Positions 4,524 through 29,258 of a stretch of 64,000 nucleotides of DNA are shown here, piece by piece (within the stretch, counting starts at the first letter, position 1; the number at the start of each line of letters is the position of its first letter). A model generated the notes under the pieces. It worked only from the letters and a program-made list of their open reading frames with translations. It was not told where the DNA came from and searched no databases. A program made the translations under genes and the position numbers. The DNA comes from Patescibacteria group bacterium (GTDB taxonomy: Bacteria > Patescibacteriota > Patescibacteriia > JACQRZ01). The stretch covers positions 15,080 to 79,079 of the forward strand of contig JBBTRI010000004.1 in the NCBI GenBank assembly GCA_038065255.1, in the 5' to 3' direction.

Positions 4524-4577
4524 AGTTAGTTATGCACTTCTTGTATGATTATATCACAATAATGTAAAAACAAAAAA

Positions 4578-4606
4578 CACCCCCGAATCTTGGGGGTGTT
4601 TGAAGT
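4578..4606 (-). terminator. rho-independent terminator hairpin (palindromic; could work on either strand)
   Basis: A-run followed by the cacccccgaatcttgggggtg stem-loop and then a T-run, immediately downstream of the pilin gene ending at 4616. Confidence 0.5.
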
Positions 4607-4615
4607 TCGCAATAA

Positions 4616-5113: not shown

Positions 5114-5117
5114 ATTT

Positions 5118-5588: not shown

Positions 5589-5638
5589 AGGCTAATGTGC
5601 TTAAAATTAATGATTAAATGAATCTTATTGTAAGTATA

Positions 5639-6100: not shown

Positions 6101-6161
6101 AATTATTCTTCTCTATATCGCTTAGTTATCCACAATGAGTACCTTTGATAGTATAGCATAT

Positions 6162-7373: not shown

Positions 7374-7398
7374 GGAAATAAGTATACCACACAAAATC

Positions 7399-7785
7399 TT
7401 ATCGATAGCGCGTGGGGCGGCGGGAAATGAGGAAAAATTCTGCTAACGTCAACCCCACTACCAAAAATGCAAGATTATACCACGTCAAAAGCCTCAGTGC
7501 CTGCAGAATAAGAAAGCCGTCCACAAGCAGTGCAAATGAGAATGCCTGACGGAATGAAAGGTGTACGCGCTGAAATACGATTTCCTTTTTAAATACCCAT
7601 GTCCTCACAAAAAAACCGATAATTGCAAACGTTCCAATCATGCTAAAGGTCAAGCTTACATAAAAAAGCAAAAGCCCCACCATGCCGGTGTCAAAGGGAT
7701 TCACTGTAGAAATGACATAGAACCACGCACCCCAGGAAAGAAGGGTACCTGCAAGCATCATGAGGATATAATGAAAAAGTGTCAT
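7399..7785 (-). CDS. hypothetical small membrane protein (3-4 TM segments)
   Basis: The ORF has hydrophobic segments and is tightly packed between pilC and the next membrane protein. Confidence 0.4.
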   Translation of the reverse strand: MTLFHYILMMLAGTLLSWGAWFYVISTVNPFDTGMVGLLLFYVSLTFSMIGTFAIIGFFVRTWVFKKEIVFQRVHLSFRQAFSFALLVDGFLILQALRLLTWYNLAFLVVGLTLAEFFLISRRPTRYR

Positions 7786-7791
7786 AGGATA

Positions 7792-8175
7792 TTATTGAAT
7801 GCCGCTTGGGGTGACAATATGTTCTCCTTTCGGATAGATTACATTTGTTTTTAATAGAAAGCGCACACGGTATGAAGGACAACGCGATTGGCTTTGGCAT
7901 TCTGTTGAGCTATCGGCAAGGAGCGGCACATAAGCGGCCGCCAAAAAACCGAAGCGCTGCAAAAACGGATCCTGGAGATGGGGATAAGCAGCATACTGCT
8001 GGGCGTAGAGCGAGAGTGAATCCTTCATACTAGCAACTTGTGAAACAATCTGCAGGTCGTATGAACGTTCGGACTCATACGCATTCCAATAGTAAAATCC
8101 AACACTGCTGAGCGCAATGAGCATACCGGCAATAATCCATCTGAAAATCGGTTTCATAGGGCTATGTAGTAACAA
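7792..8175 (-). CDS. hypothetical membrane-anchored protein whose C-terminal motif is shared with the pilin at 3990
   Basis: N-terminal transmembrane segment (MKPIFRWIIAGMLIALSSVGFYYW). The C-terminus ...KTNVIYPKGEHIVTPSGIQ parallels ...TIAGYTPGEHIARPSGVQ of pilin 3990..4523. Confidence 0.4.
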   Translation of the reverse strand: MLLHSPMKPIFRWIIAGMLIALSSVGFYYWNAYESERSYDLQIVSQVASMKDSLSLYAQQYAAYPHLQDPFLQRFGFLAAAYVPLLADSSTECQSQSRCPSYRVRFLLKTNVIYPKGEHIVTPSGIQ

Positions 8176-8461
8176 TAGTTATTCTATCAGCCACGGATTT
8201 ATCAAATCCCTCATTCACATACTGTACAATCATTTCTTCATACATGCCGATCGAAGCAGCTGCCGAGGAATCAATACATGCAAACGTAAGAATCCTACCC
8301 CTCAGTGAAAGTGGTTTGATAACCTCAAGGATATCGGCCCCAAAAAATTCTTTAACAATTTCTTCTGATCGGCTCACTGCCTTGGCAGCCGTAACGCCTC
8401 GATGGATTCCCGCACGATGCACCGCGCGGTTGAGAAGGGTATGCAATGCTGTAAAGGCCAT
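8162..8461 (-). CDS. hypothetical protein
   Basis: A 99-aa ORF lying between the helicase and the membrane protein genes. I recognised no family. Confidence 0.3.
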   Translation of the reverse strand: MAFTALHTLLNRAVHRAGIHRGVTAAKAVSRSEEIVKEFFGADILEVIKPLSLRGRILTFACIDSSAAASIGMYEEMIVQYVNEGFDKSVADRITIVTT

Positions 8462-8484
8462 ATAGTGTAGTATAGCACTTATTG

Positions 8485-11400: not shown

Positions 11401-11505
11401 TCTTTTTCAAGTTTTTACACATTCACTATGCATACATTATTTGACAGTAGAGGAATACGTGTGTAGTATATTAATGTTACCTTAAAGTGATCTTAAAATA
11501 CTCCT

Positions 11506-11760
11506 ATGTATCACCAAGAACAACAGTCAGTGTCAGTGAAAGAGTTGCGGCAGAATTTTCCCAAACTTGCAGAAAACCTTGCAAAGGGGAATTCTTTCAT
11601 TCTCATTCATCGATCAAAGCCGATTGCACGCATCATGCCGTATTCAGGCATTCCGGCAAGCCAGAGCAATGCATTGCAATTTTGGTCGAAACCGTTACGG
11701 AAAAACCGCATATCAAAAAAAATGTCGAGTGTTGCATTGGTGAAAAAAGAGCGTTCATAG
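11506..11760 (+). CDS. type II antitoxin, Phd/YefM family
   Basis: SVKELRQNFPKLAENLAKGNSFILIHRSKPIARIMPY matches the Phd/YefM fold signature. The stop lies 3 bp before the PIN gene. Confidence 0.65.
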   Translation: MYHQEQQSVSVKELRQNFPKLAENLAKGNSFILIHRSKPIARIMPYSGIPASQSNALQFWSKPLRKNRISKKMSSVALVKKERS

Positions 11761-12188: not shown

Positions 12189-13181
12189 TTATTCTTCCAG
12201 AATCGATGCAAACATGAGCGGCGCAACAATCGTTGCGTCTGATTCAATGACAAACTGGGGTGTTGTCTCGTCAATCTTGCCCCATGTTATTTTTTCGTTT
12301 GGCACTGCCCCGCTATAGGAACCATAGGATGTCGTACTATCGGAAATTTGGCAAAAATATCCCCAGTAGGGAGCTGCCTCTTTGAGGTCCTGGTTCATAA
12401 GCGGCACAACACATATAGGAAAGTCTCCGGCAATTCCTCCACCGATTTGAAAGAATCCTACTGACGAGCTCCGAGAAGCCATGCGATACCAGTCGATAAG
12501 AAATGCCATTGTCTCAAGCCCTGATTTTACAACATGGTATCCGCTGAGTTCTTTTTTTATGACATTCGCAACAAACATATTACCAAGGGTCGAATCCTCC
12601 CAACCTGGTACGAAAATAGGAAGATTCTTTTCGCATGCGGCGATCAACCAGGAATGTTGTTCATCAATTTGATAGTGCTCCCTCACGAGATTCTCGCGAA
12701 TTACCTGATACATATACTCATAGGGAAAATACCGCTCCCCCGCTCTATCCGCTCTCTGCCAGACAGAAAGCACTGCGCGTTCAATGCGCCGCATGGCGTT
12801 TTCTTCAGGAATACAGGTGTCCGTTACGCGATTCATTGCTCGGTCTCGGAGTGCCACTTCATCAGACTTTGTGAGATATCGATACTGGGGAACGCGCTCA
12901 TACTCATTGTGAGCAACAAGATTGAATATATCTTCTTCAAGATTAGCTCCCGTACAGCAAATCGCATGAACCTTATCCTTACGGATCATTTCGGCAAGTG
13001 AAATGCCAAGTTCAGCCGTGCTCATTGCGCCGGCAAGCGTCAGAAACATTTTTCCGCCATTTTTCAGATGCGATTTATAGCTTTCAGTTGCATCTTTGAG
13101 TGTTGCGGCATTGAAGTGGTGGTAGTGCCGTGAAATAAATTCTGTCATGTTCATAGAATGCAAATTATGAATGTACACCAT
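12189..13181 (-). CDS. deoxyhypusine synthase-like protein (DHS / homospermidine-synthase superfamily)
   Basis: CCTGANLEEDIFNL and FFQIGGGIAGDFP resemble the TAGGVEEDL and GGGxxKHH NAD/spermidine-binding motifs of DHS-family enzymes. It is the last gene of the long minus-strand operon. Confidence 0.55.
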   Translation of the reverse strand: MVYIHNLHSMNMTEFISRHYHHFNAATLKDATESYKSHLKNGGKMFLTLAGAMSTAELGISLAEMIRKDKVHAICCTGANLEEDIFNLVAHNEYERVPQYRYLTKSDEVALRDRAMNRVTDTCIPEENAMRRIERAVLSVWQRADRAGERYFPYEYMYQVIRENLVREHYQIDEQHSWLIAACEKNLPIFVPGWEDSTLGNMFVANVIKKELSGYHVVKSGLETMAFLIDWYRMASRSSSVGFFQIGGGIAGDFPICVVPLMNQDLKEAAPYWGYFCQISDSTTSYGSYSGAVPNEKITWGKIDETTPQFVIESDATIVAPLMFASILEE

Positions 13182-13190
13182 TGTAATGCA

Positions 13191-14288
13191 CTACGCAGAC
13201 TTTCCCCACATGGCAACGTTTATATCGAGCCTATGAAGGCGGCGCTCAGTGCTGACAATACCCACAAGAGGACGCATGTACTCGCGGAGGGTTGGAAATT
13301 CAGCAATAATTGCCTCGCTTATCTCGCGATACATCCAGCGCGCACTTTCTTCTGCCGCTCGCCAGTCATCGTAATAGTCCGTATCCCGATCAAACGACTC
13401 GTTGACGAGCAGAACAACTCCATCTTTTTTGCTCACCCGCCCTTCTTCAATATTTTCAAAAATGATATGCGCGCCGGTAAGGCATGTTTTAATAAAATTA
13501 GGATCCCAGGATTTTATTTTAATGGCTGAGTTCCATGTGCGGATGTAATCAAACCTATTTCCCACAGCCAATATCCACTCATTATGGTCGAGATCTTCGG
13601 ATGAAACTTTTTCCGTCCGCTTCTTCATGACAAGCATGCGGTTGAAAAGCATGCGGTCTGTGAGAAATTGAATCATCCCCTGTGGCATTTCGGGATAAAG
13701 CTTTGGGAGTCTTTCTTTGAGAAGTGCTTCGCTCTCTTGTTCGGAATGCTGAATAAGCATAGTTGCTTCTAAAGTCTCATCTTTATTTCCATGAAGAATA
13801 ATAGAACGATCATCCGTATTGATTCCAACAAGAACGGTATACACCTGCCGAGTTCCCCCTTCGATAAAAAGTGTTCGTGTGACACGGTCAAATTGGTCGC
13901 GTACCGCAGTCTGGCCGGCAACGGCTTTTGAAGTGTCGTAGTCATACCCCTTGCAACAAAAATCTTTCCCTTGGGAAGAAAAGTGATAGGTAACAGGAAT
14001 CAGGAGCGCCTTCCTCCTCTCGCCGGCGCTTCGTACGCGCCGCTCAAAATGCGGTTTGAATGCCGGCCAACCAATGTCGATCATACCGCCAATAGTACGC
14101 ACCGGGTACACCCACGCAAACGGCGCACCGGTAGCTTCAGTAAAATCTGCTCGCCCGTCCATGCATTTGATCGCCATGACGCTGATATTATATTTGGTAT
14201 CAAAATAACGCCGGTCTCCCTCTGTTTCATGATAGAGGCGTTCGGCTTCATCGCTCATTTTTGAAATGCGATTAATAGGAGTTGGCAT
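13191..14288 (-). CDS. hypothetical protein (365 aa) encoded within the complex-I-like operon
   Basis: 4-bp and 10-bp gaps to its neighbours. It contains a CMDGR (C-x-D-x-R) motif and an H...CC pair. I recognised no confident family. Confidence 0.5.
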   Translation of the reverse strand: MPTPINRISKMSDEAERLYHETEGDRRYFDTKYNISVMAIKCMDGRADFTEATGAPFAWVYPVRTIGGMIDIGWPAFKPHFERRVRSAGERRKALLIPVTYHFSSQGKDFCCKGYDYDTSKAVAGQTAVRDQFDRVTRTLFIEGGTRQVYTVLVGINTDDRSIILHGNKDETLEATMLIQHSEQESEALLKERLPKLYPEMPQGMIQFLTDRMLFNRMLVMKKRTEKVSSEDLDHNEWILAVGNRFDYIRTWNSAIKIKSWDPNFIKTCLTGAHIIFENIEEGRVSKKDGVVLLVNESFDRDTDYYDDWRAAEESARWMYREISEAIIAEFPTLREYMRPLVGIVSTERRLHRLDINVAMWGKSA

Positions 14289-14291
14289 AGA

Positions 14292-15836
14292 CTACACGTC
14301 ATTACCTGAATAGGATAAATTAAAACTTTTGTTTATGAGCGGAAAATCAGGAACCATATTCCCCTTCCCTGCATGTCCTAACACTGTCCAATTAATAAAT
14401 GATGGGTCGCGCACATCCACTCGACAAATTGATCCGTCTCCATCTGTTGCAACTACGTATATGATATCACCTCGCCAGCCTTCCACAATACCAACAGCAT
14501 AGGAGTTGGAAGGAAGTTTAAGGCGAGAAAGATCATTGCCAATACAGGGTCCTGAAGAAATATCACTCAATGCTTTTTGGAGGATATCGAACGAGGAATA
14601 CACCTCATCTATTCTGACACGAAATCGAGCATAGACATCACCTGAATGATATGATGGAATAGGAATCGAAAAGTGATCATATGCGGCATAGGGGTGGTCT
14701 TTGCGTGCATCGTATGCAAACCCAAGTGCTTTTGCAGCAACACCAACAACCCCATGATCCTTGGCAATTGTATAATCAAGGCTGCCTGTATGCCGCAAGC
14801 GCTCAATAAGCGAGCTATTTCGAAGCGCAACAGCCATAACTTCAGAAAAATCTTTTCGCACAGACAGAAGTGTCTGCCGTACCGATTCAAGGCAACCATT
14901 GGAAATATCTTTTTGAACTCCGCCAATCGTATTCACTCCACGCAAGAATCTGCTACCTATTAGAAAATCATTAAGCTGCATCACCACCTCCCTCAAACGC
15001 GCACCATGTGATCCGCCGAAATTAAATCCCGTGTCAAGCATGATGGCACCGATATCTCCAAAGTGATTTGCAAGCCGTTCCAGCTCACAGAATATCACAC
15101 GAATATATCGAGCTCGGATAGGAACAGGTATCGATCCCAATTCTTCGAAAGCTTGGCACAATGCAAGTGAATGACTAAATGAACTGTCTCCGCTCACGCG
15201 CTCAGAGAGCCGAAGCTTGTCTTTAAGGGCAAGGTGCTCAAATAACTTCTCACTGCCCTTGTGTGAGTATCCAAGCCGTGCCTCCAGATGAAGAATCTCT
15301 TCACCTGCTACGCTAAAACGAAAATGTCCCGGCTCAATAATGCCTGCATGCACCGGTCCAACGGGAATTTCGTAGATACCCTCACCCTGAACATGCCGAA
15401 AGGTAAACTCACCCCTTGCCGGAGATGGGCGCTCATTCCATGCAAAATCTTTTCTGAGTGGAAAGAGATTCTGAGGCCATTGTTCGTGAAGTATAAGTGA
15501 GCGAAGATTTGGATGCCCTATTGGTACAATTCCAAACAAGCTTGCTATTTTTCGTTCATGAATCGATGCCTGATGAATGATGGGTGTAAGTGAAGGAAAT
15601 GTCTCTTGCACGCATATGGTAGGTGTTTGAAAAATATGCTCTTCGGGATTGCTAAAAAGATACATAATCTTAAAATTCCCCGTCTGTTCTCGCTCATCAA
15701 AAGCAGTGATTGTTTTTAATGGAAAACCTCTCTCGTATAATTCTTTGCATGTTGCAAGAATATCGCCTTCAGGCACATTGTATATATTGAGGTTGTCGCA
15801 AGGCCTATTATTTTGTATTGGTAAAGGTTTCGTCAT
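14292..15836 (-). CDS. fused NuoC/NuoD-like subunit ([NiFe]-hydrogenase group 4 large-subunit homolog) lacking the NiFe-binding cysteines
   Basis: GPVHAGIIEPGHFRF and LGYSHKGSEKL are NuoD/HycE signatures. The N-terminal RxCGxC motif reads ERVSGDSS and the C-terminal DPCxxC motif reads DPSFINW. Confidence 0.8.
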   Translation of the reverse strand: MTKPLPIQNNRPCDNLNIYNVPEGDILATCKELYERGFPLKTITAFDEREQTGNFKIMYLFSNPEEHIFQTPTICVQETFPSLTPIIHQASIHERKIASLFGIVPIGHPNLRSLILHEQWPQNLFPLRKDFAWNERPSPARGEFTFRHVQGEGIYEIPVGPVHAGIIEPGHFRFSVAGEEILHLEARLGYSHKGSEKLFEHLALKDKLRLSERVSGDSSFSHSLALCQAFEELGSIPVPIRARYIRVIFCELERLANHFGDIGAIMLDTGFNFGGSHGARLREVVMQLNDFLIGSRFLRGVNTIGGVQKDISNGCLESVRQTLLSVRKDFSEVMAVALRNSSLIERLRHTGSLDYTIAKDHGVVGVAAKALGFAYDARKDHPYAAYDHFSIPIPSYHSGDVYARFRVRIDEVYSSFDILQKALSDISSGPCIGNDLSRLKLPSNSYAVGIVEGWRGDIIYVVATDGDGSICRVDVRDPSFINWTVLGHAGKGNMVPDFPLINKSFNLSYSGNDV

Positions 15837-17278
15837 AAGAGTTCTGCTGCTTTTGTTAGAAGTTCGGAAAGACCTGGCGGGAGATACACGCTCAGAATGA
15901 TAAGTATGAGTGAGAGAAGAATGGAAGGTGTAAGTACATACACATTAGATTCACCCCTTAAAACAGTTGGCGGCGCCTCACTGAACGCCATTGATACGAT
16001 GTGGCGCAAAAATCCCACAAATACAAGCACCAGCGAAACAAGAAGTATTACTGATGCAAAGCCATAGTGGGCTATGCCTGCAACTAAAATATGTATTTCT
16101 GTAATAAACATCCCAAAGGGCGGAACACCCGTGATAGCAAGAAGGCCACAAAACAGAAGAACGGTGCTCACAGGAAGAATTGTGATCATGCCTTTGATAT
16201 TTGAAATTCTAGAAAGGCCATATTTAAGAAAAAGAGAGCCGGATATGAAAAACAACAATGACTTTGCAATTGAGTGATAGATCATATGGAGTAAAGCTGC
16301 CCATATGCCCAATCCGCCAAATCCGCATCCCAGGGCGATAATACCCATATGTTCAATACTGGAATAGGCAAATAGCCGTTTGTATTTCTTTTGTGCCAAG
16401 ATAATAAACGCAGCAATGACCACTGACACCAGTCCAAAACCGATGAGCATCGTATTGGAAAACGATTGTTCGACCACCGAATCTGTAATGATTTTAAATC
16501 GAAAAATAGCGAGGAGTGCAACATTCAACAATGCACCCGAAAGAAGCGCACTAATCGGCGGGGGCGCCTTGCTGTGCGCATCCGGAAGCCACGTATGCAT
16601 GGGAGCAAAACCAACCTTTGTCCCATATCCTACAAGGATAAAAATAAAGGCAATCTTTAATAGATCAGGGTTAAATTCAGATACATGCTCGGAAAGTGAG
16701 TGCCAACCTGGAAATCCAAGCATGTCTACCGATGATTCACCGGCAAAAAAAAGCAGTGTTCCGAAAAAAGCCAATAGTAGTCCAATGGAATTAATCAATA
16801 GATATTTCCATGCCGCTTCTGTTGCTGAAGCCTTGTTGTAAAAGCTAATAAGGAGCGTGGTTGAAAGCGTCGTTGTTTCGATTGCAATCCACATGAGGAT
16901 GGGACTTGCTGAAAGGACACCGGCAAACATAGCAGCAACAAATAGTTGGTAGAGAAGAAAATATTGCTTTACTCTCCGAAAGCCGATAATTCCCTTCTTC
17001 ACTTCCTCGCGAAGATAGCCAATTGAATAGATTGAAGAAAAAACAGATACAATAATAACGGTAAGGAGTACGATACCGGAAAGGGCATCAAGAAAGAAAA
17101 ATGGTGCGAATGATAGTTCCTGTGCCGTATGAAGTTGCACAAACACTCCCACGGCGGTAATAATTTCTGCACAGGCACCAATACAATAAAGCGCATCGAA
17201 CATTCGAATATTTTTTCGAACAAGTACGCCAACAAGACCAATGAGAAGCGGGATGAAAACAAGAAATGTAAGTTCCAT
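15833..17278 (-). CDS. NuoN/NuoM/MrpD-family proton-conducting antiporter-like subunit (HyfF-like)
   Basis: PMHTWLPDAHSKAPPPISALLSGALLNVALLAIFRF matches the complex I antiporter-subunit signature. It has about 14 predicted TM segments. Confidence 0.8.
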   Translation of the reverse strand: MELTFLVFIPLLIGLVGVLVRKNIRMFDALYCIGACAEIITAVGVFVQLHTAQELSFAPFFFLDALSGIVLLTVIIVSVFSSIYSIGYLREEVKKGIIGFRRVKQYFLLYQLFVAAMFAGVLSASPILMWIAIETTTLSTTLLISFYNKASATEAAWKYLLINSIGLLLAFFGTLLFFAGESSVDMLGFPGWHSLSEHVSEFNPDLLKIAFIFILVGYGTKVGFAPMHTWLPDAHSKAPPPISALLSGALLNVALLAIFRFKIITDSVVEQSFSNTMLIGFGLVSVVIAAFIILAQKKYKRLFAYSSIEHMGIIALGCGFGGLGIWAALLHMIYHSIAKSLLFFISGSLFLKYGLSRISNIKGMITILPVSTVLLFCGLLAITGVPPFGMFITEIHILVAGIAHYGFASVILLVSLVLVFVGFLRHIVSMAFSEAPPTVLRGESNVYVLTPSILLSLILIILSVYLPPGLSELLTKAAELL

Positions 17279-17281
17279 AAA

Positions 17282-17938
17282 TCAATCGATTAATCGCTTC
17301 ATGGCACTTGTATCGAGTGAACCGAACTGCCGGAATATCAGTGAGGCAAGAATGGTTGCCATAATCACCCACACAAGAATACTTACGGTTATGCCAAGTT
17401 GTAACGCGGGATTCTGTTCGAGACCTGCAAAGAGAGCAAAAGAAATTATCCCATTCTCCAATGAAAGATATCCCAGCATCTGAGAAAAGATTCCCTTTCT
17501 GTTTATTATCAAAAAAAGTGAAATAAGGATGATTGCAAATGGCAGAAGGAGAAATTCTTGTCCGACATTATTCAATACGATAAGTTCTTTAAAAAGAGTT
17601 GAACGTGTAAGTGCCGTAAGGCAGGCAATAATAACAAGTGTCAGAGGCATCGAGCAATAACTGCCGGCTAAAAATGTGAGTTGATGTTTTCGGATAAGGA
17701 GGTAGAAAAAATATGGCGTGATGACAAGCTTGATTGCTATGGTTGCTGCCAACGCAACATAGAGCAATGGAGATGCTGCGCCAAGATAGGATGCAATGAG
17801 TAGTAATGCCAATACTGCGGTTTGGACAACATAAAGAATAACGGCCGTTTTGTTATTTTTAACCAAATGCAGCACAACAACAGTCAAAAAAATAATTGCT
17901 TCGAAAAGAAAAAGAAGTTGAGGAGATAGTGTAAACAT
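17282..17938 (-). CDS. small polytopic membrane subunit (HyfE / Mrp small-subunit-like)
   Basis: A 218-aa all-hydrophobic protein placed between the NuoH-like and NuoN-like genes, as HyfE is in hyf operons. The assignment rests on position, size and the LENGI motif, and the family assignment is uncertain. Confidence 0.45.
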   Translation of the reverse strand: MFTLSPQLLFLFEAIIFLTVVVLHLVKNNKTAVILYVVQTAVLALLLIASYLGAASPLLYVALAATIAIKLVITPYFFYLLIRKHQLTFLAGSYCSMPLTLVIIACLTALTRSTLFKELIVLNNVGQEFLLLPFAIILISLFLIINRKGIFSQMLGYLSLENGIISFALFAGLEQNPALQLGITVSILVWVIMATILASLIFRQFGSLDTSAMKRLID

Positions 17939-17942
17939 ATTC

Positions 17943-18923
17943 TTATAGTGTTAATCCGAGAGCAACAATACAGATGACAAAGGAAGTTGCAAGAAGACTC
18001 GGCAATCGAAATATGCGAAGCTTTGCAATACTCGATTCAATGAGAGCGATAGCCCCGCAAAGTATACATATCTTTATCGCGAAGTAGACAAGCCCTATGA
18101 ATAACGCAATGGGATCGAATGTATGCGCAATGCCGTAAGGAAAAAAAATACTTGCTGCCAGTGAAAGAAAAATCATATATTTTTGGGCAGCTGCCCATTC
18201 TATGAGAGCAAGCCGCTTGCCGGAATATTCCAATATCATCGCTTCATGAATCATCGTCAACTCCAAATGCGTTGATGGATTGTCAAAAGGATACCGCCCC
18301 GTTTCAGCAAGAAGCGCAATAAAAAATCCGCTAAATGCTAGCACGACTGGCGCCAAGTTCGACAAAGAGAGCGACCCTACCCCATTTGAAATACCAAACA
18401 TGTTTGTAGTGTGCGTGAGAAGTGCGAGTACAAAAAGTGAAAGGACAAGCGTCCCTTCGGCAAGTGAGGAGACCATCATTTCTCGACTTGAACCAAATCC
18501 GCCGAAAGCTCCTCCTGTATCAAGCCCAGCTAAAGCAAGAAAAAATGTACCAAATGCCATGCAGTAAACAAGCACAAGAAAATCCCCACTGCCACTCTTT
18601 GCAAAAGCTGTCGTAATGAGAGGTATATTGAAACCAACAAAAAGAAAGAGTGAACACAGGATATAGGGAGTAAAGCGAAATATCCACGAAGCATCCACAC
18701 TCAAAACTTCATCTTTATGGAATAGCTTCCAGAGATCACGATAGGGCTGCAGCACAGAAGCGCCACACCTCTTTTGCAATCGTGCCTTGAGCATTCTGGT
18801 AATTCCAATACAGAGCGGGGAGAAAATCGGAATAATGATGAGTTGAATAAGTGAAGCAAAGAAAAATGACATACTGAAAATATTACAGCGCAAGTGTTGC
18901 GAGAAGAACAATAAGCGCTCCAA
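17943..18923 (-). CDS. NuoH / HycD / HyfC-family membrane subunit
   Basis: RYPFDNPSTHLELTMIHEAMILEYSG matches the NuoH signature (PFD..E.E.EL..G...EYSG). Confidence 0.8.
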   Translation of the reverse strand: MERLLFFSQHLRCNIFSMSFFFASLIQLIIIPIFSPLCIGITRMLKARLQKRCGASVLQPYRDLWKLFHKDEVLSVDASWIFRFTPYILCSLFLFVGFNIPLITTAFAKSGSGDFLVLVYCMAFGTFFLALAGLDTGGAFGGFGSSREMMVSSLAEGTLVLSLFVLALLTHTTNMFGISNGVGSLSLSNLAPVVLAFSGFFIALLAETGRYPFDNPSTHLELTMIHEAMILEYSGKRLALIEWAAAQKYMIFLSLAASIFFPYGIAHTFDPIALFIGLVYFAIKICILCGAIALIESSIAKLRIFRLPSLLATSFVICIVALGLTL

Positions 18924-20928: not shown

Positions 20929-21456
20929 TTACGAATTTTTTTGATCTGGGGAGATGTCATCAAGAATGGTATGAAGCGACTTCAATATTGTGAGTGGTGA
21001 TGGCGGATCTCCCGGAATAGCATACTGTACCGGCACTACTGTATGCGCACCATCACACACTGCATATGATCCTTTAAATATTCCACCGTCAATTGCGTCA
21101 TCCCCAAGCGCAACAACAATATTCGGAGTTGGCATTGCTTCATAGGTCCGCACGAGAGCTTCTCTCATATTGCTACTTACCGGCCCGGTAACAATAAGCA
21201 TATCGGCATGTCGAGGCGATGCAACAAAACGAATGCCAAACCGCTCGACGTCATAATATGCATTCCCCAATGCTACCAACTCTTGTTCGCATGCGTTCGT
21301 CGAACCGGCTGTAACCACTCGAATAGCGAGCGATCTATTAAAAAGTTTTTTTATTTTTTTTTCCAATGCAAGGCCCAAATCAAGAACTTCATTCGAACCT
21401 AAACATTCTGCACGAGAAATAACAACCTGCTTCGTTGACAGCGTCTTATACAGCAT
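20929..21456 (-). CDS. NuoB-like / hydrogenase small-subunit-like protein with a degenerate Fe-S cluster site
   Basis: ASPRHADMLIVTGPV is the NuoB hallmark. The cluster ligand positions read STNACEQE (CC becomes AC), ALGDDAIDGG (C becomes D) and IPGDPP (CPP becomes DPP). Its start lies 3 bp after the atpC stop. Confidence 0.8.
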   Translation of the reverse strand: MLYKTLSTKQVVISRAECLGSNEVLDLGLALEKKIKKLFNRSLAIRVVTAGSTNACEQELVALGNAYYDVERFGIRFVASPRHADMLIVTGPVSSNMREALVRTYEAMPTPNIVVALGDDAIDGGIFKGSYAVCDGAHTVVPVQYAIPGDPPSPLTILKSLHTILDDISPDQKNS

Positions 21457-21459
21457 ATT

Positions 21460-21876
21460 CTACGCGGTATTTTTTCGATGTTTTCTTACGACATGCAAAC
21501 GAGCAAGTTCTTTTTCCAGTTTCGCTGCGATGATTGCGTATTCAGTTGTATCAAATGCTTGTTGGGTAAGGAGCTCTGCTGCACGCCTGTGCGCTTCTTG
21601 AGCGCGTTCTTCGATGATTTCTTCCACGCGCTCGGCAGTATCGGCTAAAATAATGATTTGCGTATTCTGCACTTCGAGCATGCCGGTGGATACAACCATG
21701 GGAATTATTTCGCCATCTTTTTTAATCGTAAGTTCACCGGATTTCAATAAACCTACCAACCCGACATGCTGCGGCAGTACGGTAATCTCACCGCTCTGTG
21801 TGGGAATGGTTACCTGGTCTACCTCGCCGTCATAGATGATCCGTTCCGGCGTTATTATACGAAGTGCAGTGGGCAT
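21460..21876 (-). CDS. atpC: F1 ATP synthase epsilon subunit
   Basis: LRIITPERIIYDGEVDQVTIPTQSGEITVLPQHVGLVGLLKSGEL is typical of the epsilon N-terminal beta-sandwich. Confidence 0.85.
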   Translation of the reverse strand: MPTALRIITPERIIYDGEVDQVTIPTQSGEITVLPQHVGLVGLLKSGELTIKKDGEIIPMVVSTGMLEVQNTQIIILADTAERVEEIIEERAQEAHRRAAELLTQQAFDTTEYAIIAAKLEKELARLHVVRKHRKNTA

Positions 21877-21887
21877 ACTTGATGTGT

Positions 21888-23264
<1,377 letters not shown>

Positions 23265-23291
23265 TCATAATTCATAATCGGTAAGATAGTG

Positions 23292-24167
23292 TTATTCCAA
23301 AGCAGCGCGGCCAGATGAAATTTCTGCAATTTCCTGCGTAATGCCCGCTTGGCGGATTTGGTTATACGTGAGGGAAAGATCGGAAAGCAGATCAGAGGCT
23401 GATGATGTCGCATTGTGCATCGCGAGCATACGTGCGCTATGTTCGGATGCTTCGCTTTCGAGGACTGCTTGAAAAATCTGCACATCCAGAAGACGAGGTA
23501 AGACTGCCTTGATTACTTCTGTATCCGACGGCTCAAAAAGAACCGGTAAAGTTGCTGTTGTGCCTTCCCTGTGGTGTTCCTCAACCTCGAGCGGCAGGAG
23601 TGTTTTGGCAACCGAAGACTGTTTAACCGAGGAAACAAAATGCATGGCAACAAGTATGACTTTATCAAGCTCGCCGCGGATATACATATCGCTGATAACA
23701 TGGGAGATTGGCGCAACATCCATAATAGAACGAGTGATATCATTTTTTGGAAAATCCGCCTTGACAGTGTACCCGGAGCGAGCAGCAAGCTCTCCCCCTT
23801 TCTTGCCTAGAGAAAAAAGTAGGGTATGTGTTGCTCCAGATTCTTTCTCGCGAGCTACGGTACGCTGGACCTGTGCAAGAAGTGCATTATTGAATCCTCC
23901 GCAAAGCCCTCGATTGGTACTCACAAGAACAATGCCTAATGTTTTCACAGGACGTTTTGCAAGGAGTGGATGAAGCTGCTCATCATGATTTGGATCCAAG
24001 CGACTAAGTATATCCCATGCAGTTGTTGCATAGGGACGTGTTGCAAGAGCCGCAGTCACTGCACGCCTCATTTTGGAAGCGGAAACAAGCTCCATTGCCT
24101 TTGTCATTTTTTTTGTATTGCCGATTGATCGGATCTGCCGGCGGATTGCAAGCGTACCTTTTGCCAT
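23292..24167 (-). CDS. atpG: F1 ATP synthase gamma subunit
   Basis: The N-terminus MAKGTLAIRRQIRSIGNTKKMTKAMELVSASKMRRA and the C-terminal helix are typical of gamma. Confidence 0.9.
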   Translation of the reverse strand: MAKGTLAIRRQIRSIGNTKKMTKAMELVSASKMRRAVTAALATRPYATTAWDILSRLDPNHDEQLHPLLAKRPVKTLGIVLVSTNRGLCGGFNNALLAQVQRTVAREKESGATHTLLFSLGKKGGELAARSGYTVKADFPKNDITRSIMDVAPISHVISDMYIRGELDKVILVAMHFVSSVKQSSVAKTLLPLEVEEHHREGTTATLPVLFEPSDTEVIKAVLPRLLDVQIFQAVLESEASEHSARMLAMHNATSSASDLLSDLSLTYNQIRQAGITQEIAEISSGRAALE

Positions 24168-24169
24168 AC

Positions 24170-25702
24170 TTACAGCTGTGCCGTAGCATTAAAATCTGTG
24201 ATTGCTTTTTTGAGAAGGTGTTCTGTTTCTTCGTTAAGCTCGCCAGTTTCGCGGATCGACTGGAGTACGATTTTCTCGTTTGCACTTTCAATATAATTGA
24301 TAAAGTGTTCTTCCCATTTTTGGATTTTATCCACTTCAATTGTATCGAGGTGTCCGTTCACGCCTGCATACAGCAGAACAACCTGCTGTTCAACGGGACG
24401 TGGTTTGTATTGTCCTTGCTTGAGTAATTCTGTAAGCCGCTTACCCCGATTGATTTGTTTTTGCGTTGTTTCATCCAGATCTGATCCGAATTGAGCGAAT
24501 GCGGCAAGTTCGCGGTACTGTGCCAAGTCAAGACGGAGACGGCCGGCAACTTTTTTCATCGCTTTTGTTTGTGCAGATGAGCCGACACGAGACACCGACA
24601 AACCAACATTCAAAGCGGGGCGTATGCCCTGGTAAAAGAGATCTGTTTCCAGGTAAATTTGTCCATCGGTAATGGAAATAACGTTTGTGGGAATATATGC
24701 AGATACATCGCCTGCCTGCGTTTCAATAATAGGCAGAGCGGTCAATGAACCGCCACCATTGTCAGCATTTAGTTTTGCAGCGCGCTCCAACAAACGTGAA
24801 TGGAGGTAAAAAATATCGCCAGGATATGCCTCGCGCCCCGGCGGTCGACGCAATAAAAGCGAAAGTTGGCGATACGCAACCGCATGCTTGGAAAGATCAT
24901 CATAGACAATAAGTACGTCCTTACCCTGTTCCATAAAGTATTCTCCCATTGCGCATGCTGCGTAGGGAGCTATAAAACTCATGGCCGCCGGATCGGATGC
25001 ACCTGCAAGTACCACTACTGTATAATCCATTGCGCCTTCTTCGGAAAGGCGTGAAACAATTTTTGCAATTTTAGATTCCTTCTGTCCTATTGCTACATAG
25101 ATACAGAATACGGGAGCGCCTTTTGCATATTCACTCTTTTGGCTGATGATGGCATCGAGCGCCACGGCAGTTTTGCCTGTTTGGCGATCGCCGATAATCA
25201 GTTCTCGTTGCCCTCTGCCAATTGGTATCATTGCATCTACTGCCGTTATGCCCGTAATGAGCGGCTGCCGTACCGATTGTCGCGTGATAACACCCGGAGC
25301 GATTTTTTCAATAGGATAAAAGGTATCCGTAGCAATGGGCCCCTGCCCATCAATAGGTGCTCCAAGAGCATCAACAACACGACCCACAAGACCGGGACCT
25401 ACCGGAACTTCCAGAATACGTCCCGTAGGTTTTACGCGATCGCCCTCTCTTAAACTCCTGAAATCTCCCAAAATCATTGCGCCAACAGTATCTTCTTCAA
25501 GATTCAGTACGACACCCATAACCGTTGAACCATCATGGGAAAGAAATTCAAGCATTTCCGATTGACGCGCATCTGCCAACCCGGAGATTTTTGCAATACC
25601 ATCCCCTACTTCGATAACATTACCTTCTTTTTGGACCTGTAGATCGCTTTTGAAAGATTCAAGCTGCTTCTGAAGTGATTGTATGAGATATTCTGATGAC
25701 AT
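24170..25702 (-). CDS. atpA: F1 ATP synthase alpha subunit
   Basis: [17 protein letters not shown]-loop, and 510 aa. Confidence 0.95.
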
Positions 25703-25716
25703 AATAACGTATTCAG

Positions 25717-26127
25717 TTAGGCATGGGCACTTTTTTGTAAATGGCGACGTAATGCATGGAGGCGTCCCGCATCGCTAGCATCGACGACAAGGTCTTGTGC
25801 TTTCACTCTGAATCCTCCGATGAGATCCGCATCGACAGTAAAGGAAATATTGCTCTTTTTCCCGTATGATGCATGGATCATTTCCTCGAACATCTTTTTT
25901 TCATTGGCAGTGGGTTGGCTTGCGGTTGTAATAGTTACGCGAACAGAGCCCTCGAGGCGACTTGTGACATCACGCAACGATCGTGCTACCGCACCTGCCG
26001 TTCGAAGCAATCCTTGCCTAGCTAAAAAAGATACAAATTCATGTATCATGGTATCAATCTGCTGATGTGTTTTGCCTTTTGCCAGAGCAAGGAGGCTTTC
26101 CGCATATCGCTGGGGGGCTATCTTCAT
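25717..26127 (-). CDS. atpH: F1 ATP synthase delta (OSCP) subunit, short form
   Basis: The call rests on position between atpF and atpA and on OSCP-like helices. At 136 aa it is shorter than usual. Confidence 0.7.
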
Positions 26128-26627
26128 ACGTTTTTTTTGAGCCGATCAACGGCTTTTTTAGCAAGATCTTTTGAAATCTTTTTTTCACCGCTTGTTTGTG
26201 CTATCGATGCAGATGCCTGCACAACGAGATCAACAATATCTTTTTTTGCATCTTCGAGCATTTGTTGTTTTTCCTGTTCTATGCGCGTCTTGGCCTGAGT
26301 AACAACGCGCTTCACTTCTTCACGAGTTTGCTTCACTGTTTCTTGCCGATGCTGCTCCGCTAATGCCGATGCTTCTTCCAAAATCTTTTCTGCTTCTTTC
26401 TTTGCCTTGAGAACGATTTGCTTATAGGTCTGGTCGGTGAGTTTCAGCTTCTCTTCAGCTGCATCGGCATCTGCCAACCCTTTTTCGATCTTTGCAGTGC
26501 GCTTTTCAAGCAATGCAAGAAGGGGCTTATACAAGAGCTTGTACAGGGCAAAAAAAAGAATTGCGAAATTGACAAGTTGGGCTACAAGCAACCTCCAATC
26601 AACACCGAGTGATGTGAGGATTTCCAT
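26124..26627 (-). CDS. atpF: Fo ATP synthase b subunit
   Basis: A single N-terminal TM segment followed by a long charged helix (KEAEKILEEASALAEQHRQE...), in the expected operon position. Confidence 0.75.
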   Translation of the reverse strand: MEILTSLGVDWRLLVAQLVNFAILFFALYKLLYKPLLALLEKRTAKIEKGLADADAAEEKLKLTDQTYKQIVLKAKKEAEKILEEASALAEQHRQETVKQTREEVKRVVTQAKTRIEQEKQQMLEDAKKDIVDLVVQASASIAQTSGEKKISKDLAKKAVDRLKKNV

Positions 26628-26648
26628 AGATGGTGTATGACTAAAAAG

Positions 26649-26963
<315 letters not shown>

Positions 26964-26998
26964 TTATTGTAGCGCACATTTTGAAGGTGTCAACAGGT

Positions 26999-28517: not shown

Positions 28518-29258
28518 CTAGTGGTGCGCTTCTTCGGTTGCCATTTTGATAAACACGATCGTGAGCATGGAAAACACCAATGCCTGGATAAAGCCAACAA
28601 ACAACTCAAGCGCCATAAACGGCAGAGGTACAATATACGGCACGAGCGTGTACATCACGATCAAAAGCACTTCTCCGGCAAAAATATTGCCAAACAAACG
28701 AAAAGAGAATGACACCAATTTTGCCACTTCTGAAATCAGTTCCAAAATCCCAACAAAAAAACTTATGGGGCTTTTGAAATTTAAAAATTTTGAAATATAT
28801 TTGGAAAACCCAATACTCATGACGCCGACCACCTGAATAGTAATAACACTGATAAGGGATAATGCGATAGTAAAGTTAAGGTCGGCCGCACTCGCACGAA
28901 TAAACGGTATAATAATTCGCTTTCCTTCATGTTCTTCCCAAAGCCCCACAGATCCCATGCCGGGTAAAAGCTCCGTCCAATTTGTGAGAATGATGAATAA
29001 GAAAATAGTTGCAATGAGAGGAAAGAATCTTTTGGTCTGTTCCTTATTGCCCATGACGCCTTCAACAATCCCAAACAAAAAATCGATAACAACCTCTGCA
29101 ATATTTTGAGCGCCCCTCGGCACGAGCGTAAGCTTGCGCGTTATGACATATCCCGCAACGCACAAAAAAACTATGATGATCCACGAAATCAGTATACTGT
29201 TCGTAACAGGAAACGAACCGATATGAAAAAGTGTTTCTGCGCTAATGGAGATATTCAT
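28518..29258 (-). CDS. atpB: Fo ATP synthase a subunit
   Basis: RLFGNIFAGEVLLIVMY (the conserved Arg-containing motif), and five TM segments. Confidence 0.85.
   Translation of the reverse strand: MNISISAETLFHIGSFPVTNSILISWIIIVFLCVAGYVITRKLTLVPRGAQNIAEVVIDFLFGIVEGVMGNKEQTKRFFPLIATIFLFIILTNWTELLPGMGSVGLWEEHEGKRIIIPFIRASAADLNFTIALSLISVITIQVVGVMSIGFSKYISKFLNFKSPISFFVGILELISEVAKLVSFSFRLFGNIFAGEVLLIVMYTLVPYIVPLPFMALELFVGFIQALVFSMLTIVFIKMATEEAHH

Follow-up and report, generated by a model that had tools for sequence, protein, structure and literature searches.

The six contiguous genes that adjoin the ATP synthase genes in the window (the whole stretch of 64,000 nucleotides of Patescibacteria DNA analysed here) encode, judged by sequence, an Ehr complex of the CPR type, and the reading frame at 14292-15836 is, on alignment and structural-model grounds, almost certainly its large subunit (EhrL). 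Since the NiFe ligands and three of the four cluster cysteines are lost and no input subunit is encoded, we reason that the complex is neither a hydrogenase nor an oxidoreductase. It probably works as a redox-free ion translocator, and the explanation that we rank best overall, and hold tentatively, would tie this translocator to the F1Fo ATP synthase and to a CsoSCA2-type carbonic anhydrase in proton/bicarbonate handling (Table 1).

Table 1. Features of the window, in positions of the whole stretch.
Feature	Position	Strand	Evidence
Deoxyhypusine-synthase-like gene, last of the co-directional run	12189..13181	-	Pfam DS, E 1.1e-44
CsoSCA2-type beta-carbonic anhydrase, 365 aa, 3 nt downstream of EhrL	13191..14288	-	Family alignment, profile, fold search
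EhrL, HycE/HyfG-type NuoC-NuoD fusion "large subunit", 514 aa	14292..15836	-	Intact ORF; Pfam PF00329 + PF00346
L2-equivalent KSFNLSYSGNDV of EhrL, residues 503-514; Cys to Ser508, Cys to Gly511	14295..14330	-	HycE alignment
RDPSFINW of EhrL, residues 476-483, separate conserved NuoD/HycE motif, not L2	14388..14411	-	Aligns with HycE RAATYANW, Nqo4 RAPSFVNL
L1-equivalent ERVSGDSSFSHS of EhrL, residues 212-223; Cys to Ser215, Cys to Ser218; Asp217 invariant	15168..15203	-	HycE alignment
Beta1-beta2 loop motif GPVHAGIIEPGHFRF of EhrL, residues 160-174, HycE-like	15315..15359	-	Aligns with HycE GPLHVTSDEPGHFRL
NuoC-like N-terminal domain of EhrL, residues 21-135	15432..15776	-	Pfam Complex1_30kDa, E 2.7e-20
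HyfF/NuoN-like antiporter-like subunit, 481 aa	15833..17278	-	Best NCBIfam match HyfF, E 1.7e-128
HyfE-like (NuoK/J-like) membrane subunit, 218 aa	17282..17938	-	NCBIfam "hydrogenase 4 membrane subunit", E 5.8e-16; weak Pfam Oxidored_q2
HyfC/NuoH-like subunit, 326 aa, TTG start (NCBI annotation: 309 aa)	17943..18923	-	Pfam NADHdh, E 2.4e-40
HyfB/NuoL-like antiporter-like subunit, 680 aa	18883..20925	-	NCBIfam "hydrogenase 4 subunit B", 677.9 bits vs cutoff 667
EhrS, NuoB/HycG-like small subunit, 175 aa; cluster ligands T53, C56, D120, D150	20929..21456	-	Pfam PF01058
F1Fo ATP synthase genes atpE(c)-F(b)-H(delta)-A-G-D-C, with a 3-nt gap to the EhrS gene	21460..26954	-	Pfam
Promoter-like TTGACA-16-TACAAT (11/12), just upstream of atpE	26966..26993	-	Consensus scan only
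atpB (a subunit)	28518..29258	-	Pfam ATP-synt_A, E 1.7e-46

Gene organization and the large subunit

Ehr complexes are defined by a group-4-like large subunit without Ni/Fe ligands (PMC6349859, PMC10284858). EhrL carries no such ligands, and the genes around it, six contiguous with its own, supply NuoB-like, NuoH-like, HyfE-like and NuoL/M/N-like membrane components. The cassette runs in the order S-HyfB-HyfC-HyfE-HyfF-L, its ORFs are all intact and either overlap or lie at most 4 nt apart, and this gene order is strictly kept in 47 related loci (individual loci are denoted below by L numbers). The membrane subunits match Hyf models, HyfB exceeding its curated cutoff (NCBIfam); with its HycG-, HyfB-, HyfC-, HyfE-, HyfF- and HycE/HyfG-like subunits, the complex would derive from Hyf/FHL-type group-4 [NiFe] hydrogenases.

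The N-terminal NuoC-like fusion, proposed by an earlier reading from sequence only, was recovered as a Pfam domain, and the NuoD part of EhrL matched Complex1_49kDa (E 2.4e-45). E. coli HycE (7z0s_E) is the closest solved relative by sequence (E 2.6e-78) and also headed the Foldseek search with the AF2 model (pLDDT 84.2; E 3.2e-34, TM 0.86, 32% identity over 509 columns), so that, by Foldseek and Pfam, the fold (NuoC-like domain included) is the group 4 [NiFe]-hydrogenase large-subunit/NuoD fold as seen in HycE. More than 8000 homologues were scored, the best of which (58-76% identical) carry the names Uhrbacteria, Vogelbacteria, Wildermuthbacteria and Patescibacteria. The window itself has a match in contig CAYIQZ010000004.1 (assembly GCA_964365725.1). 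All four strings quoted in the sequence-only reading were found in the protein, namely the three listed in Table 1 (GPVHAGIIEPGHFRF, ERVSGDSSFSHS and RDPSFINW) and LGYSHKGSEK (residues 188-197). The GPVHAGIIEPGHFRF loop is near-invariant across all Ehr sequences, down to 33% identity, and its low pLDDT in the monomer model is what is expected of an interface loop.

The former NiFe site

At L1, HycE RVCGICGFAHS aligns with EhrL RVSGDSSFSHS, so that the motif RxCGxCxxxH reads RVSGDSSFSH and Cys241 and Cys244 of HycE correspond to Ser215 and Ser218. The sequence-only reading was right that none of the four ligand positions holds a cysteine, and it erred over two particulars: the L1 replacements, given as Ser/Asp, are both Ser, and L2, placed at RDPSFINW with Ser/Asn as substitutes, is located by the HycE and Nqo4 alignments at the C-terminal NLSYSGND. 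There HycE DPCYSCTD (sldpcysctd) faces EhrL NLSYSGND (sfnlsysgnd), with Cys531 replaced by Ser508 and Cys534 by Gly511. Instead of DPCxxCxx(H/R) and a C-terminal maturation peptide, EhrL reads NLSYSGNDV-stop; it ends one residue past the Asp preceding the HycE maturation cleavage site, where mature HycE also has its C-terminus, and therefore has no C-terminal extension.

Across 119 aligned homologues (58-76% identical) the four former ligand columns contain no Cys at all (S in 119/119; S in 100 and T in 19; S in 119/119; G in 119/119). S215, D217, S508 and G511 are invariant in these sequences, only the Ser218 column being S/T, and the SGDS / LSYSG pattern recurs in 53/53 Ehr large subunits from related loci, down to 33% identity. 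From these alignments we judge that the loss of the metal ligands in EhrL is not due to chance, and that the replacement residues are invariant points to a functional rather than a passive site; as had been suggested, the large subunit may serve as a structural or substrate-binding module. The core of the cysteine loss is already known, since Jaffe et al. 2020 (PMC7304191) described the large subunits of CPR Ehr, a monophyletic clade, as being without metal-binding cysteines; the earlier verdict that the protein is not a hydrogenase stands, given the missing NiFe ligands, and agrees with that published view.

A cysteine motif shifted in register or hidden by a frameshift, named in the sequence-only reading as what would overturn it, was looked for and rejected: the ORF is intact, the only mostly-Cys columns of the family (positions 30 and 227) lie outside both L1 and L2, and the C-terminus matches HycE residue for residue with Ser/Gly replacing Cys. 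That such a disguised hydrogenase, or else a decaying relic of a hydrogenase operon, is present here can be dismissed for practical purposes. The patchy, cassette-like distribution of Ehr (PMC7304191; loci L003 and L132, see below) does show that it is dispensable in close relatives, but decay is refuted by the conservation data, that is, by six intact and tightly packed ORFs, by a gene order that is strict in 47 loci, and by dozens of invariant columns among the more than 8000 homologues.

Small subunit and redox centres

Alignments with HycG, MbhJ and NDUFS7 show that EhrS has lost three of the four cysteines of CxxC...C...C and has no [4Fe-4S] site, as foreseen by the claim that the NuoB-like subunit has no intact N2 cluster. 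The 150 closest 50%-cluster representatives included 133 complete small subunits, of which 94 were CCCC and 17 had at most one Cys; CPR-type relatives retain at most one and never more, whereas non-CPR Ehr retain CCCC. The residues that took the place of the cluster cysteines are specifically Asp (DCDD, TCDD, DADD and similar) rather than random ones.

According to Pfam, the six-gene operon encodes no NuoE/F/G, NuoI/HycF-like, ferredoxin-like or other Fe-S subunit, and hyp, ferredoxin and Nuo input genes were likewise absent from the subset of window ORFs that was scanned. Group 4 enzymes require a small subunit with the proximal [4Fe-4S] cluster and a ferredoxin-like subunit with two [4Fe-4S] clusters, neither of which the operon provides. 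The statement that a quinone-reducing electron input is missing was thereby confirmed (no NuoEFG in the operon, no N2 ligands in EhrS). Because EhrS has lost three of its four cysteines and no ferredoxin-like or NuoEFG subunit accompanies it, the complex has no recognisable redox centre.

A different chemistry can be envisaged, in which the EhrL pocket (E168, H171, E212, S215, D217, S219, H222 and S508) and/or the Asp residues of EhrS would bind another metal or a substrate, and the complex would be a primary pump driven by something other than hydrogen. We consider this very improbable. It would account for replacement residues that stay invariant over 33-100% identity in EhrL and for the specific choice of Asp in EhrS, but the operon offers no partner for electron input or output, none of the known metal-site signatures was recognised, and the non-CPR Ehr have the same pocket yet keep their [4Fe-4S] ligands, so that the pocket is not tied to cluster loss.

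Membrane arm and probable ion translocation

The channel positions of the antiporter-like subunits were placed by alignment to MbsH, NdhF and MbhH and by reference to complex I. The PF00361 set (TM5 Glu, TM7 Lys, TM8 Lys/His, TM11 His/Lys, TM12 Lys/Glu) is kept, with TM8 of the HyfF-like subunit as the sole exception. In the HyfB-like subunit, E147, K229, K260, H350, H354, K358 and E413 have no alternative residue in 39 aligned sequences (E147 and E413 in 38/39, one being gapped); the HyfF-like subunit invariably has E134, K221, H331 and K339, with Asn in 37/46 at the TM8 position and either Lys or Glu at TM12. In the HyfC/NuoH-like subunit, the loop RYPFDNPSTHLELTMIHEAMILEYSG and numerous acidic residues are conserved at 95% or above. 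It is because the antiporter Lys/Glu/His, the NuoH-like loop and the metal-site replacement residues are all kept invariant that we favour an ion translocator; it would run on, or interconvert, an ion gradient, and the former catalytic module may have become a non-redox cytoplasmic cap or coupling site. In the searchable literature we found no report of invariant replacement residues together with conserved antiporter proton-channel residues in CPR Ehr.

The same features could also belong to a secondary antiporter of the Mrp kind, that is, a cofactor-free Ehr that swaps H+ for Na+ (or K+) as a partner of the F1Fo ATPase in CPR cells without a respiratory chain, for pH/Na+ homeostasis or for converting the gradient from ATP hydrolysis. 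The large and small subunits would then be a structural plug, and the carbonic anhydrase would be there by coincidence or would do no more than buffer cytoplasmic protons. The lack of a redox centre and the invariant antiporter-like residues are consistent with such an exchanger, and Mrp itself is a precedent for the redox-independent use of this membrane architecture; we nevertheless think it unlikely, as MrpB/C/E/F/G are absent and the invariance of the NuoB/NuoCD/NuoH-like module and of the former metal-site residues would be left unexplained.

ATP synthase context

The two most telling neighbours of the cassette, which the sequence-only reading does not mention, are the ATP synthase operon upstream and the CsoSCA2 gene downstream. 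We read the atp, ehr and CsoSCA2 genes as a putative single operon, co-transcribed from the promoter-like site upstream of atpE to the co-directional genes below; down to 12189 no strong terminator-like hairpin was seen on the minus strand. As the promoter and terminator scans gave an overall site total not above shuffled expectation, this reading rests mainly on gene spacing. The deoxyhypusine-synthase-like gene that closes the run had all its NCBIfam matches below their cutoffs.

The atp genes adjoin the Ehr cassette in 11 of 47 related metagenome loci, and in L089 and L120 the cassette sits between atpG and atpD. All-against-all clustering of the surroundings of the 47 main-clade cassettes returned atp genes as the only recurrent neighbours. 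Two loci (L003 and L132) have flanks that are ~91% identical and differ by the clean presence or absence of a 7.2-kb Ehr cassette between atpC and csoSCA2. A placement of the cassette inside or next to atp operons was not found in the searchable literature (which covered few subscription journals). An Mrp-like exchanger would sit well with this sole recurrent neighbour (insertion inside the atp operon included) and with the wholesale gain or loss of the cassette next to atpC. Against it, the ATP synthase c-subunit carries Ile in place of Gln32 and E-A-I where the motif has E-S-T; it is thus without the Na+-binding signature (Gln32 + E-S-T), and no Na+ cycle is indicated.

CsoSCA2 and bicarbonate neighbourhoods

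The 365-aa protein encoded next to EhrL (recorded as MEK7648551.1, Patescibacteria group bacterium) had no match in a sequence-only PDB search and Pfam CsoSCA_cat alone stayed sub-threshold (E 0.007), so that its identity was settled only by family alignment, profile and fold search. C42-x-D44-x-R46, H102 and C112 are invariant and align to C173, D175, R177, H242 and C253 of CsoSCA; the profile matched CsoSCA 8thm (E 1e-9), with H235 aligned to CsoSCA H397; and the AF2 model (pLDDT 86.6) found CsoSCA 9g4t in Foldseek (E 4.6e-17, TM 0.73). The protein is thus predicted to have the Cys-His-Cys Zn ligands, the Asp-Arg dyad and the two-domain fold of CsoSCA. H397 is the proposed proton shuttle of CsoSCA, the nearest structural homologue of DabA, and vectorial DabA has Leu at this position (10.64898/2026.05.01.722082); CsoSCA2 retains the equivalent His and therefore fits an ordinary reversible carbonic anhydrase.

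CsoSCA2 proteins of the window type branch off as a deep sub-clade, which shares no more than 34% identity with other CsoSCA2 and almost always adjoins Ehr: within the clade (47-100% identity) this holds for 6 of the 7 lineages seen, in two gene orders. Ehr and CsoSCA2 are also neighbours, independently, in Moraniibacteriota (L007, L011) and in Pseudomonadota, and in L073 the two are operonic and followed by the bicarbonate-using PurK. A SulP transporter gene stands at the head of the Ehr operon in L023, L059 and L060, and two SulP genes precede Ehr in Gallionella (L138). CsoSCA2 adjoins DabB-DabA clusters in 17/79 loci, and about half of the CsoSCA2 loci have none of these neighbours. Within the window, DabA (PF10070), SulP and PurK were sought and none was found (no PF10070 match, no tblastn hit of DabA). 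The searchable literature (few subscription journals) connected Ehr with neither carbonic anhydrase nor SulP nor the operons of ATP synthase.

The weakest step of our explanation is that Ehr would work with the F1Fo ATP synthase and CsoSCA2 in proton/bicarbonate handling. H+ (or Na+) movement via the Ehr membrane arm may be coupled to, or serve, the CsoSCA2-catalysed reaction CO2 + H2O <-> HCO3- + H+, in analogy to DabAB and to CupA on NDH-1, minus the redox drive; we regard this coupling as conceivable, with rather more doubt than confidence. From its neighbourhoods, CsoSCA2 is likely a partner in membrane energetics rather than a stray enzyme of the cytosol. That Ehr and a dedicated CsoSCA2 make up a third independently evolved ion-gradient-coupled CO2/bicarbonate converter, after CupA-NDH-1 and DabAB, is a doubtful proposition at present.

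Several observations bear on this step. CsoSCA2 was sought within 10 kb of the 47 main-clade CPR Ehr loci and found at none of them; the Ehr complex therefore does not need a carbonic anhydrase encoded in cis, and this sets a limit to the carbonic anhydrase hypothesis. Of three betaproteobacterial Ehr loci sampled regardless of CsoSCA2, two were without SulP and without any CA-family gene in the vicinity. The cassette presence/absence between L003 and L132 means that the adjacency here could reflect an attraction of both ehr and csoSCA2 to the atp operon, and CsoSCA2 does stand beside atp operons without Ehr in seven loci (L003, L013, L018, L019, L021, L024, L030), a point in favour of the Mrp-like exchanger. 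The recurrence of Ehr-CsoSCA2 and Ehr-SulP neighbourhoods across unrelated lineages speaks against that exchanger.

Implications

Ehr complexes are widespread, and the literature describes their function as unknown or hypothetical. To our knowledge, CPR bacteria have ATP synthase and generally no respiratory chain. A complex-I-like machine with proton channels and no redox centres, repeatedly placed by selection within or next to ATP synthase operons, bears on how these bacteria handle proton-motive force, and also on how the coupling module of complex I can operate without electron transfer; the recurrent CsoSCA2/SulP/DAB neighbourhood suggests a testable function for Ehr. If Ehr and CsoSCA2 do make up a third kind of CO2/bicarbonate converter, Ehr co-transcribed with F1Fo would be the core of membrane bioenergetics in CPR bacteria without a respiratory chain, and, given the SulP-Ehr-CsoSCA2 clusters of autotrophic Betaproteobacteria, a first function for Ehr complexes generally would be at hand.

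Comparison with known systems

Ehr complexes elsewhere (Geobacter sulfurreducens GSU0739-45, Margulisbacteria, Saganbacteria, comammox Nitrospira) likewise have a large subunit without the Ni/Fe cysteines, encoded in a cluster with NuoB-like, NuoH-like, HyfE-like and antiporter-like genes. The CPR-type Ehr described here is distinguished by the gene order S-HyfB-HyfC-HyfE-HyfF-L and by the loss of the cluster ligands, whereas the sampled betaproteobacterial/non-CPR Ehr have the small subunit last and CCCC. With E. coli formate hydrogenlyase/hydrogenase-4 (HycE/HyfG, HycG/HyfI, HyfB, C, E, F) the complex has in common the NuoC-NuoD fusion, the EPGH loop and the L1/L2 frameworks; unlike those enzymes it is without NiFe cysteines, proximal cluster, HycF/HyfH/HyfA, formate dehydrogenase and C-terminal maturation peptide, and the Pfam-scanned ORFs of the window include no hyp genes.

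The Q-module of complex I (NuoCD/Nqo4 + NuoB/Nqo6 + NuoH) has the fold of EhrL (TM 0.81 to E. coli NuoCD) and is also without NiFe cysteines. It differs in that Tyr87, the quinone ligand of Nqo4, aligns with Gly216 of EhrL and that the N2 ligands are absent in EhrS, and no NuoA/J/I/E/F/G was found in the operon or among the window ORFs scanned with Pfam. EhrL as a NuoD was accordingly rejected (below every NCBIfam cutoff, NuoD 223.8 vs 360; Gly at the Tyr87 equivalent; no N2 cluster). Mrp (Mnh/Pha), a relative of the complex I membrane arm that is independent of redox chemistry and demonstrates that this architecture can work without it, has PF00361 antiporter-like subunits with the same Glu/Lys chain; Ehr retains in addition the NuoH/NuoB/NuoCD-like module, and MrpB/C/E/F/G are absent (by Pfam, with two PF00361 proteins only).

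In DabAB and in CupA/CupB on cyanobacterial NDH-1, a beta-CA-type (DabA) or CA-like (CupA) protein works on PF00361 proton-translocating subunits whose genes adjoin its own. No DabA (PF10070) or Cup protein was found here, and the Cup system is driven by redox chemistry, which the Ehr complex cannot be. CsoSCA2 were described as non-carboxysomal homologues of CsoSCA, CPR phyla included, and as unstudied (Sutter, Kerfeld & Scott 2022, PMC9164163), with no mention there of antiporter, ATP synthase or NADH-dehydrogenase-like neighbours; the proteins of that study and the CsoSCA2 of the window are alike in being compact CsoSCA-like beta-carbonic anhydrases with all active-site residues.

The former metal site of EhrL

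The large subunit (EhrL) of the energy-converting hydrogenase-related (Ehr) complex carries an N-terminal NuoC-like domain (residues 21-135, PF00329) fused to a NuoD-like one (PF00346), as the sequence-only reading had recognized and Pfam confirmed. Among solved structures the nearest is E. coli HycE, which is the formate hydrogenlyase large subunit (267 bits, E 2.6e-78), followed by T. thermophilus Nqo4 (163 bits), MbhL (148) and E. coli NuoCD (122). An AlphaFold model built with 119 homologues as input (pLDDT 84.2, pTM 0.88) likewise had HycE as its best Foldseek match (E 3.2e-34, TM 0.86, 32% identity) and E. coli NuoCD as its second (TM 0.81, 23% identity).

In the HycE alignment, both Cys-pair motifs that hold the NiFe ligands in group-4 hydrogenases are altered: L1 (RVCGICGFAHS) reads RVSGDSSFSHS, with Cys241 and Cys244 replaced by Ser215 and Ser218, and L2 (SLDPCYSCTD) reads SFNLSYSGND, with Cys531 and Cys534 replaced by Ser508 and Gly511. 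All four ligands are thus missing and, judged by these alignments, EhrL cannot bind NiFe. The earlier claim that all four cysteines are substituted stands, while the replacing residues it named were partly wrong and its second motif was misplaced: RDPSFINW (476-483) aligns instead with HycE RAATYANW and Nqo4 RAPSFVNL. In HycE the processing site comes after an Asp; EhrL ends one residue past this position and so has no maturation peptide. The site is not NuoD-like either, as the quinone-binding Tyr87 of Nqo4 pairs with Gly216.

Across the 119 homologues (58-76% identity), the four ligand columns hold Ser (119), Ser or Thr (100 and 19), Ser (119) and Gly (119), and Asp217 is invariant (119/119). 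The SGDS...LSYSG signature and the loop GP[VI]HAGIIEPGHFRF are kept even in Ehr proteins of only 33-40% identity. Such a pattern of Cys replacement is not drift.

Features of the Ehr region and other genes of the window
Feature	Position	Strand	Remarks
Deoxyhypusine/homospermidine-synthase-like gene	12189-13181	minus	below every NCBIfam cutoff; next after CsoSCA2
CsoSCA2-type beta-carbonic anhydrase	13191-14288	minus	365 aa; 3 nt downstream of EhrL
EhrL	14292-15836	minus	intact ORF, 514 aa
HyfF/NuoN-like	15833-17278	minus	Pfam/NCBIfam
HyfE-like	17282-17938	minus	Pfam/NCBIfam
HyfC/NuoH-like	17943-18923	minus	Pfam/NCBIfam
HyfB/NuoL-like	18883-20925	minus	NCBIfam 'hydrogenase 4 subunit B', 677.9 bits vs cutoff 667
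NuoB/HycG-like small subunit	20929-21456	minus	Pfam/NCBIfam
atpE-F-H-A-G-D-C	21460-26954	minus	Pfam
Terminator-like hairpin	27196-27215		flanks the 216-aa ORF
ORF, 216 aa	27227-27877	minus	soluble; between atpB and atpE; Pfam no match
Terminator-like hairpin	27885-27902		flanks the 216-aa ORF
atpB	28518-29258	minus	Pfam
ORF, 331 aa	35831-36826	minus	Pfam no match
ORF, 443 aa	42702-44033	minus	Pfam no match; between uvrA and uvrB
Radical-SAM + GNAT protein	48116-50002	plus	Radical_SAM, Radical_SAM_C, Acetyltransf_1
ORF, 1087 aa	52651-55914	minus	Pfam no match

Absence of redox centres

The five genes upstream of EhrL overlap or lie no more than 4 nt apart. In the small subunit the CxxC...C...C ligand positions read T53, C56, D120 and D150 (alignment to HycG, MbhJ and NDUFS7), by which three of the four [4Fe-4S]-binding cysteines are gone. 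The operon contains no ferredoxin-like gene and none for NuoEFG or formate dehydrogenase, and among the Pfam-scanned ORFs across the window neither hyp nor ferredoxin nor Nuo input genes turned up; no electron-input subunit is encoded. On both points (no intact N2 cluster, no electron input) the sequence-only reading had been correct.

CPR-type (Patescibacteria) small subunits in related loci keep at most one Cys at these positions, the lost ones being mostly replaced by Asp (DCDD, TCDD, DADD, SEGD and similar), which suggests a carboxylate, possibly cation-binding, site instead of a cluster, and not random decay. Within the 133 complete sequences among the 150 closest 50%-cluster representatives (from 1.84 billion proteins), 94 have CCCC and 17 at most one Cys, so full loss of the cofactor site is a derived, minority state.

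Genomic neighbourhood

The small-subunit gene begins 3 nt past atpC, with which a complete F1Fo operon ends, and by their arrangement the ehr genes make up a unit with F1Fo and the gene of CsoSCA2 (a non-carboxysomal CsoSCA-like beta-carbonic anhydrase). The cassette adjoins atp genes in 11 of 47 related loci (L-numbers, here and below, denote loci compared with the window): after atpC, as in the window (L090, L093, L107, L123, L124), between atpG and atpD and so within the ATP synthase operon (L089, L120; about 4287-11521), after atpE-atpF with the other atp genes absent within 8 kb (L106), or with convergent Ehr and atp operons (L086, L095, L111). No other recurring neighbours were found in these 47. 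Of two loci with flanks 90.6-92.4% identical, one has the six-gene cassette between atpC and csoSCA2 (L132, 4369-11547) and the other lacks it (L003, 9966-9993), a clean difference of 7,179 nt, which indicates that the cassette is accessory and moves as a unit.

The 216-aa ORF is 73% identical in L003 and has a 12/12 sigma-70-like site at its start. Elsewhere in the window, the radical-SAM + GNAT protein has an Elp3-like architecture, to our knowledge uncommon in bacteria.

The window has its match in contig CAYIQZ010000004.1 (assembly GCA_964365725.1). Its CsoSCA2, recorded as 'hypothetical protein' (Patescibacteria group bacterium, MEK7648551.1), is sub-threshold in Pfam (E 0.007) and had no match in a plain PDB sequence search; its profile matches CsoSCA 8thm (E 1e-9) and its model (pLDDT 86.6) resembles CsoSCA structures (E 4.6e-17, TM 0.73). 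C42-x-D44-x-R46, H102 and C112, invariant across thirteen homologues, align with CsoSCA C173, D175, R177, H242 and C253, and H235 with H397, giving a predicted complete active site. Non-carboxysomal homologues, present in CPR phyla, were named CsoSCA2 and called unstudied by Sutter, Kerfeld and Scott (2022, PMC9164163), where antiporter or ATP synthase neighbours are unmentioned. The window-type sub-clade is deep, sharing no more than 34% identity with other CsoSCA2, and adjoins Ehr in 6 of the 7 lineages seen, either downstream of EhrL (window, L132-134, L143/144, L142) or upstream of the small-subunit gene (L002, L141); the seventh is the cassette-less relative (L003-5). The deoxyhypusine/homospermidine-synthase-like gene also follows CsoSCA2 in L003, L136 and Peribacteria L009, and lies two genes downstream in L133. 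Tandem divergent CsoSCA2 pairs occur in L142 (931-3254, ~25% mutual identity), L021 (8675-11017), L025 (1182-3638) and L017 (8602-11032).

Out of at least 576 CsoSCA2 relatives among GTDB species representatives, we surveyed the loci of the 79 best matches and found at least one of Ehr, DabB-DabA, F1Fo or SulP/STAS within 10 kb in 32 (19 when only the 41 loci whose 10-kb flanks are complete are counted): an Ehr operon in 6 (plus 2 partial), F1Fo in 7, SulP/STAS in 8, and a DabB-DabA cluster with three more antiporter-like genes in 17, mostly Nitrosomonadaceae and Rhodocyclaceae. Among Pseudomonadota, L073 has Ehr, CsoSCA2 and then PurK, a bicarbonate-using enzyme, and L023, L059 and L060 have SulP followed by Ehr, convergent with CsoSCA2. 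Betaproteobacterial Ehr operons are directly preceded by SulP/STAS anion-transporter genes in the same orientation (L059 18900-20897, L023 18311-20446, L060 18233-20908, L138 1-3895). Three betaproteobacterial Ehr loci were sampled without conditioning on CsoSCA2: in Gallionella (L138) two SulP genes head the operon, and in the other two no SulP or CA-family gene is nearby. In the CPR loci L021, L025 and L030, SulP-like genes lie beside CsoSCA2.

In Nitrosomonas oligotropha (L054, 475-11035) one operon holds DabB, DabA (PF10070, E 3e-240), three PF00361 antiporter-like genes and CsoSCA2; the arrangement recurs in L012, L015, L017, L031, L036, L039, L048, L055, L056 and L075, and the same cluster is convergent with CsoSCA2 in L032, L045, L046, L064 and L084. 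Its genes make it a DAB inorganic-carbon pump with three antiporter-like subunits and a further carbonic anhydrase added, of which we found no description in the DAB or CsoSCA2 literature searched.

Proposed function

The HyfB-like subunit keeps the canonical TM5 Glu, TM7 Lys, TM8 Lys, TM11 His-His-Lys and TM12 Glu without a single substitution in 39 sequences; the canonical HyfF-like residues are invariant, save that TM8 is Asn, and the NuoH-like loop RYPFD...ELT...HEA...EYSG, together with many acidic residues, is at least 95% conserved. As gene order is also the same in 47/47 metagenomic Ehr loci, a decaying relic is ruled out. The residues for ion translocation and the region of the former active site are both under strong constraint.

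We infer that the Ehr complex is a redox-independent ion translocator. Our proposal, in its least certain step, is that it would serve proton/bicarbonate handling together with CsoSCA2, either by removing or supplying the CO2-hydration proton, as DabB and NdhF3/D3 do, or by maintaining an ion gradient for bicarbonate transport. Against coupling to the carbonic anhydrase count the adjacency of CsoSCA2 in 0/47 main-clade Ehr loci, the L003/L132 indel (atpC-csoSCA2 adjacency exists without Ehr), and the H397-equivalent His, absent from the vectorial enzyme DabA (preprint 10.64898/2026.05.01.722082) whereas CsoSCA2 keeps it. Chief among the alternatives is an Mrp-like cation/proton exchanger working with the ATPase, the carbonic anhydrase being incidental. 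The window c-subunit lacks the Na+-binding signature, and so gives no pointer to a Na+ cycle here. The points of interest are the fully cofactor-free state with conserved proton channels and the recurring ATP synthase/CsoSCA2/SulP/DAB neighbourhood, of which no mention was found in the literature searched; these features make the function of Ehr experimentally testable.

Relation to known Ehr complexes

The window complex is an Ehr. CPR Ehr large subunits have been reported as monophyletic, without metal-binding cysteines and such that they 'likely cannot interact with H2' (Jaffe et al. 2020, PMC7304191), so that the cysteine loss first noticed in the sequence, though real (and mislocated at L2), was in its core already known, and EhrL is probably a further member of this clade. 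Ehr is defined likewise in PMC6349859 and PMC10284858, where its function is called unknown or hypothetical. Non-CPR Ehr in the related loci retain CCCC in the small subunit, whereas the window Ehr has lost it.
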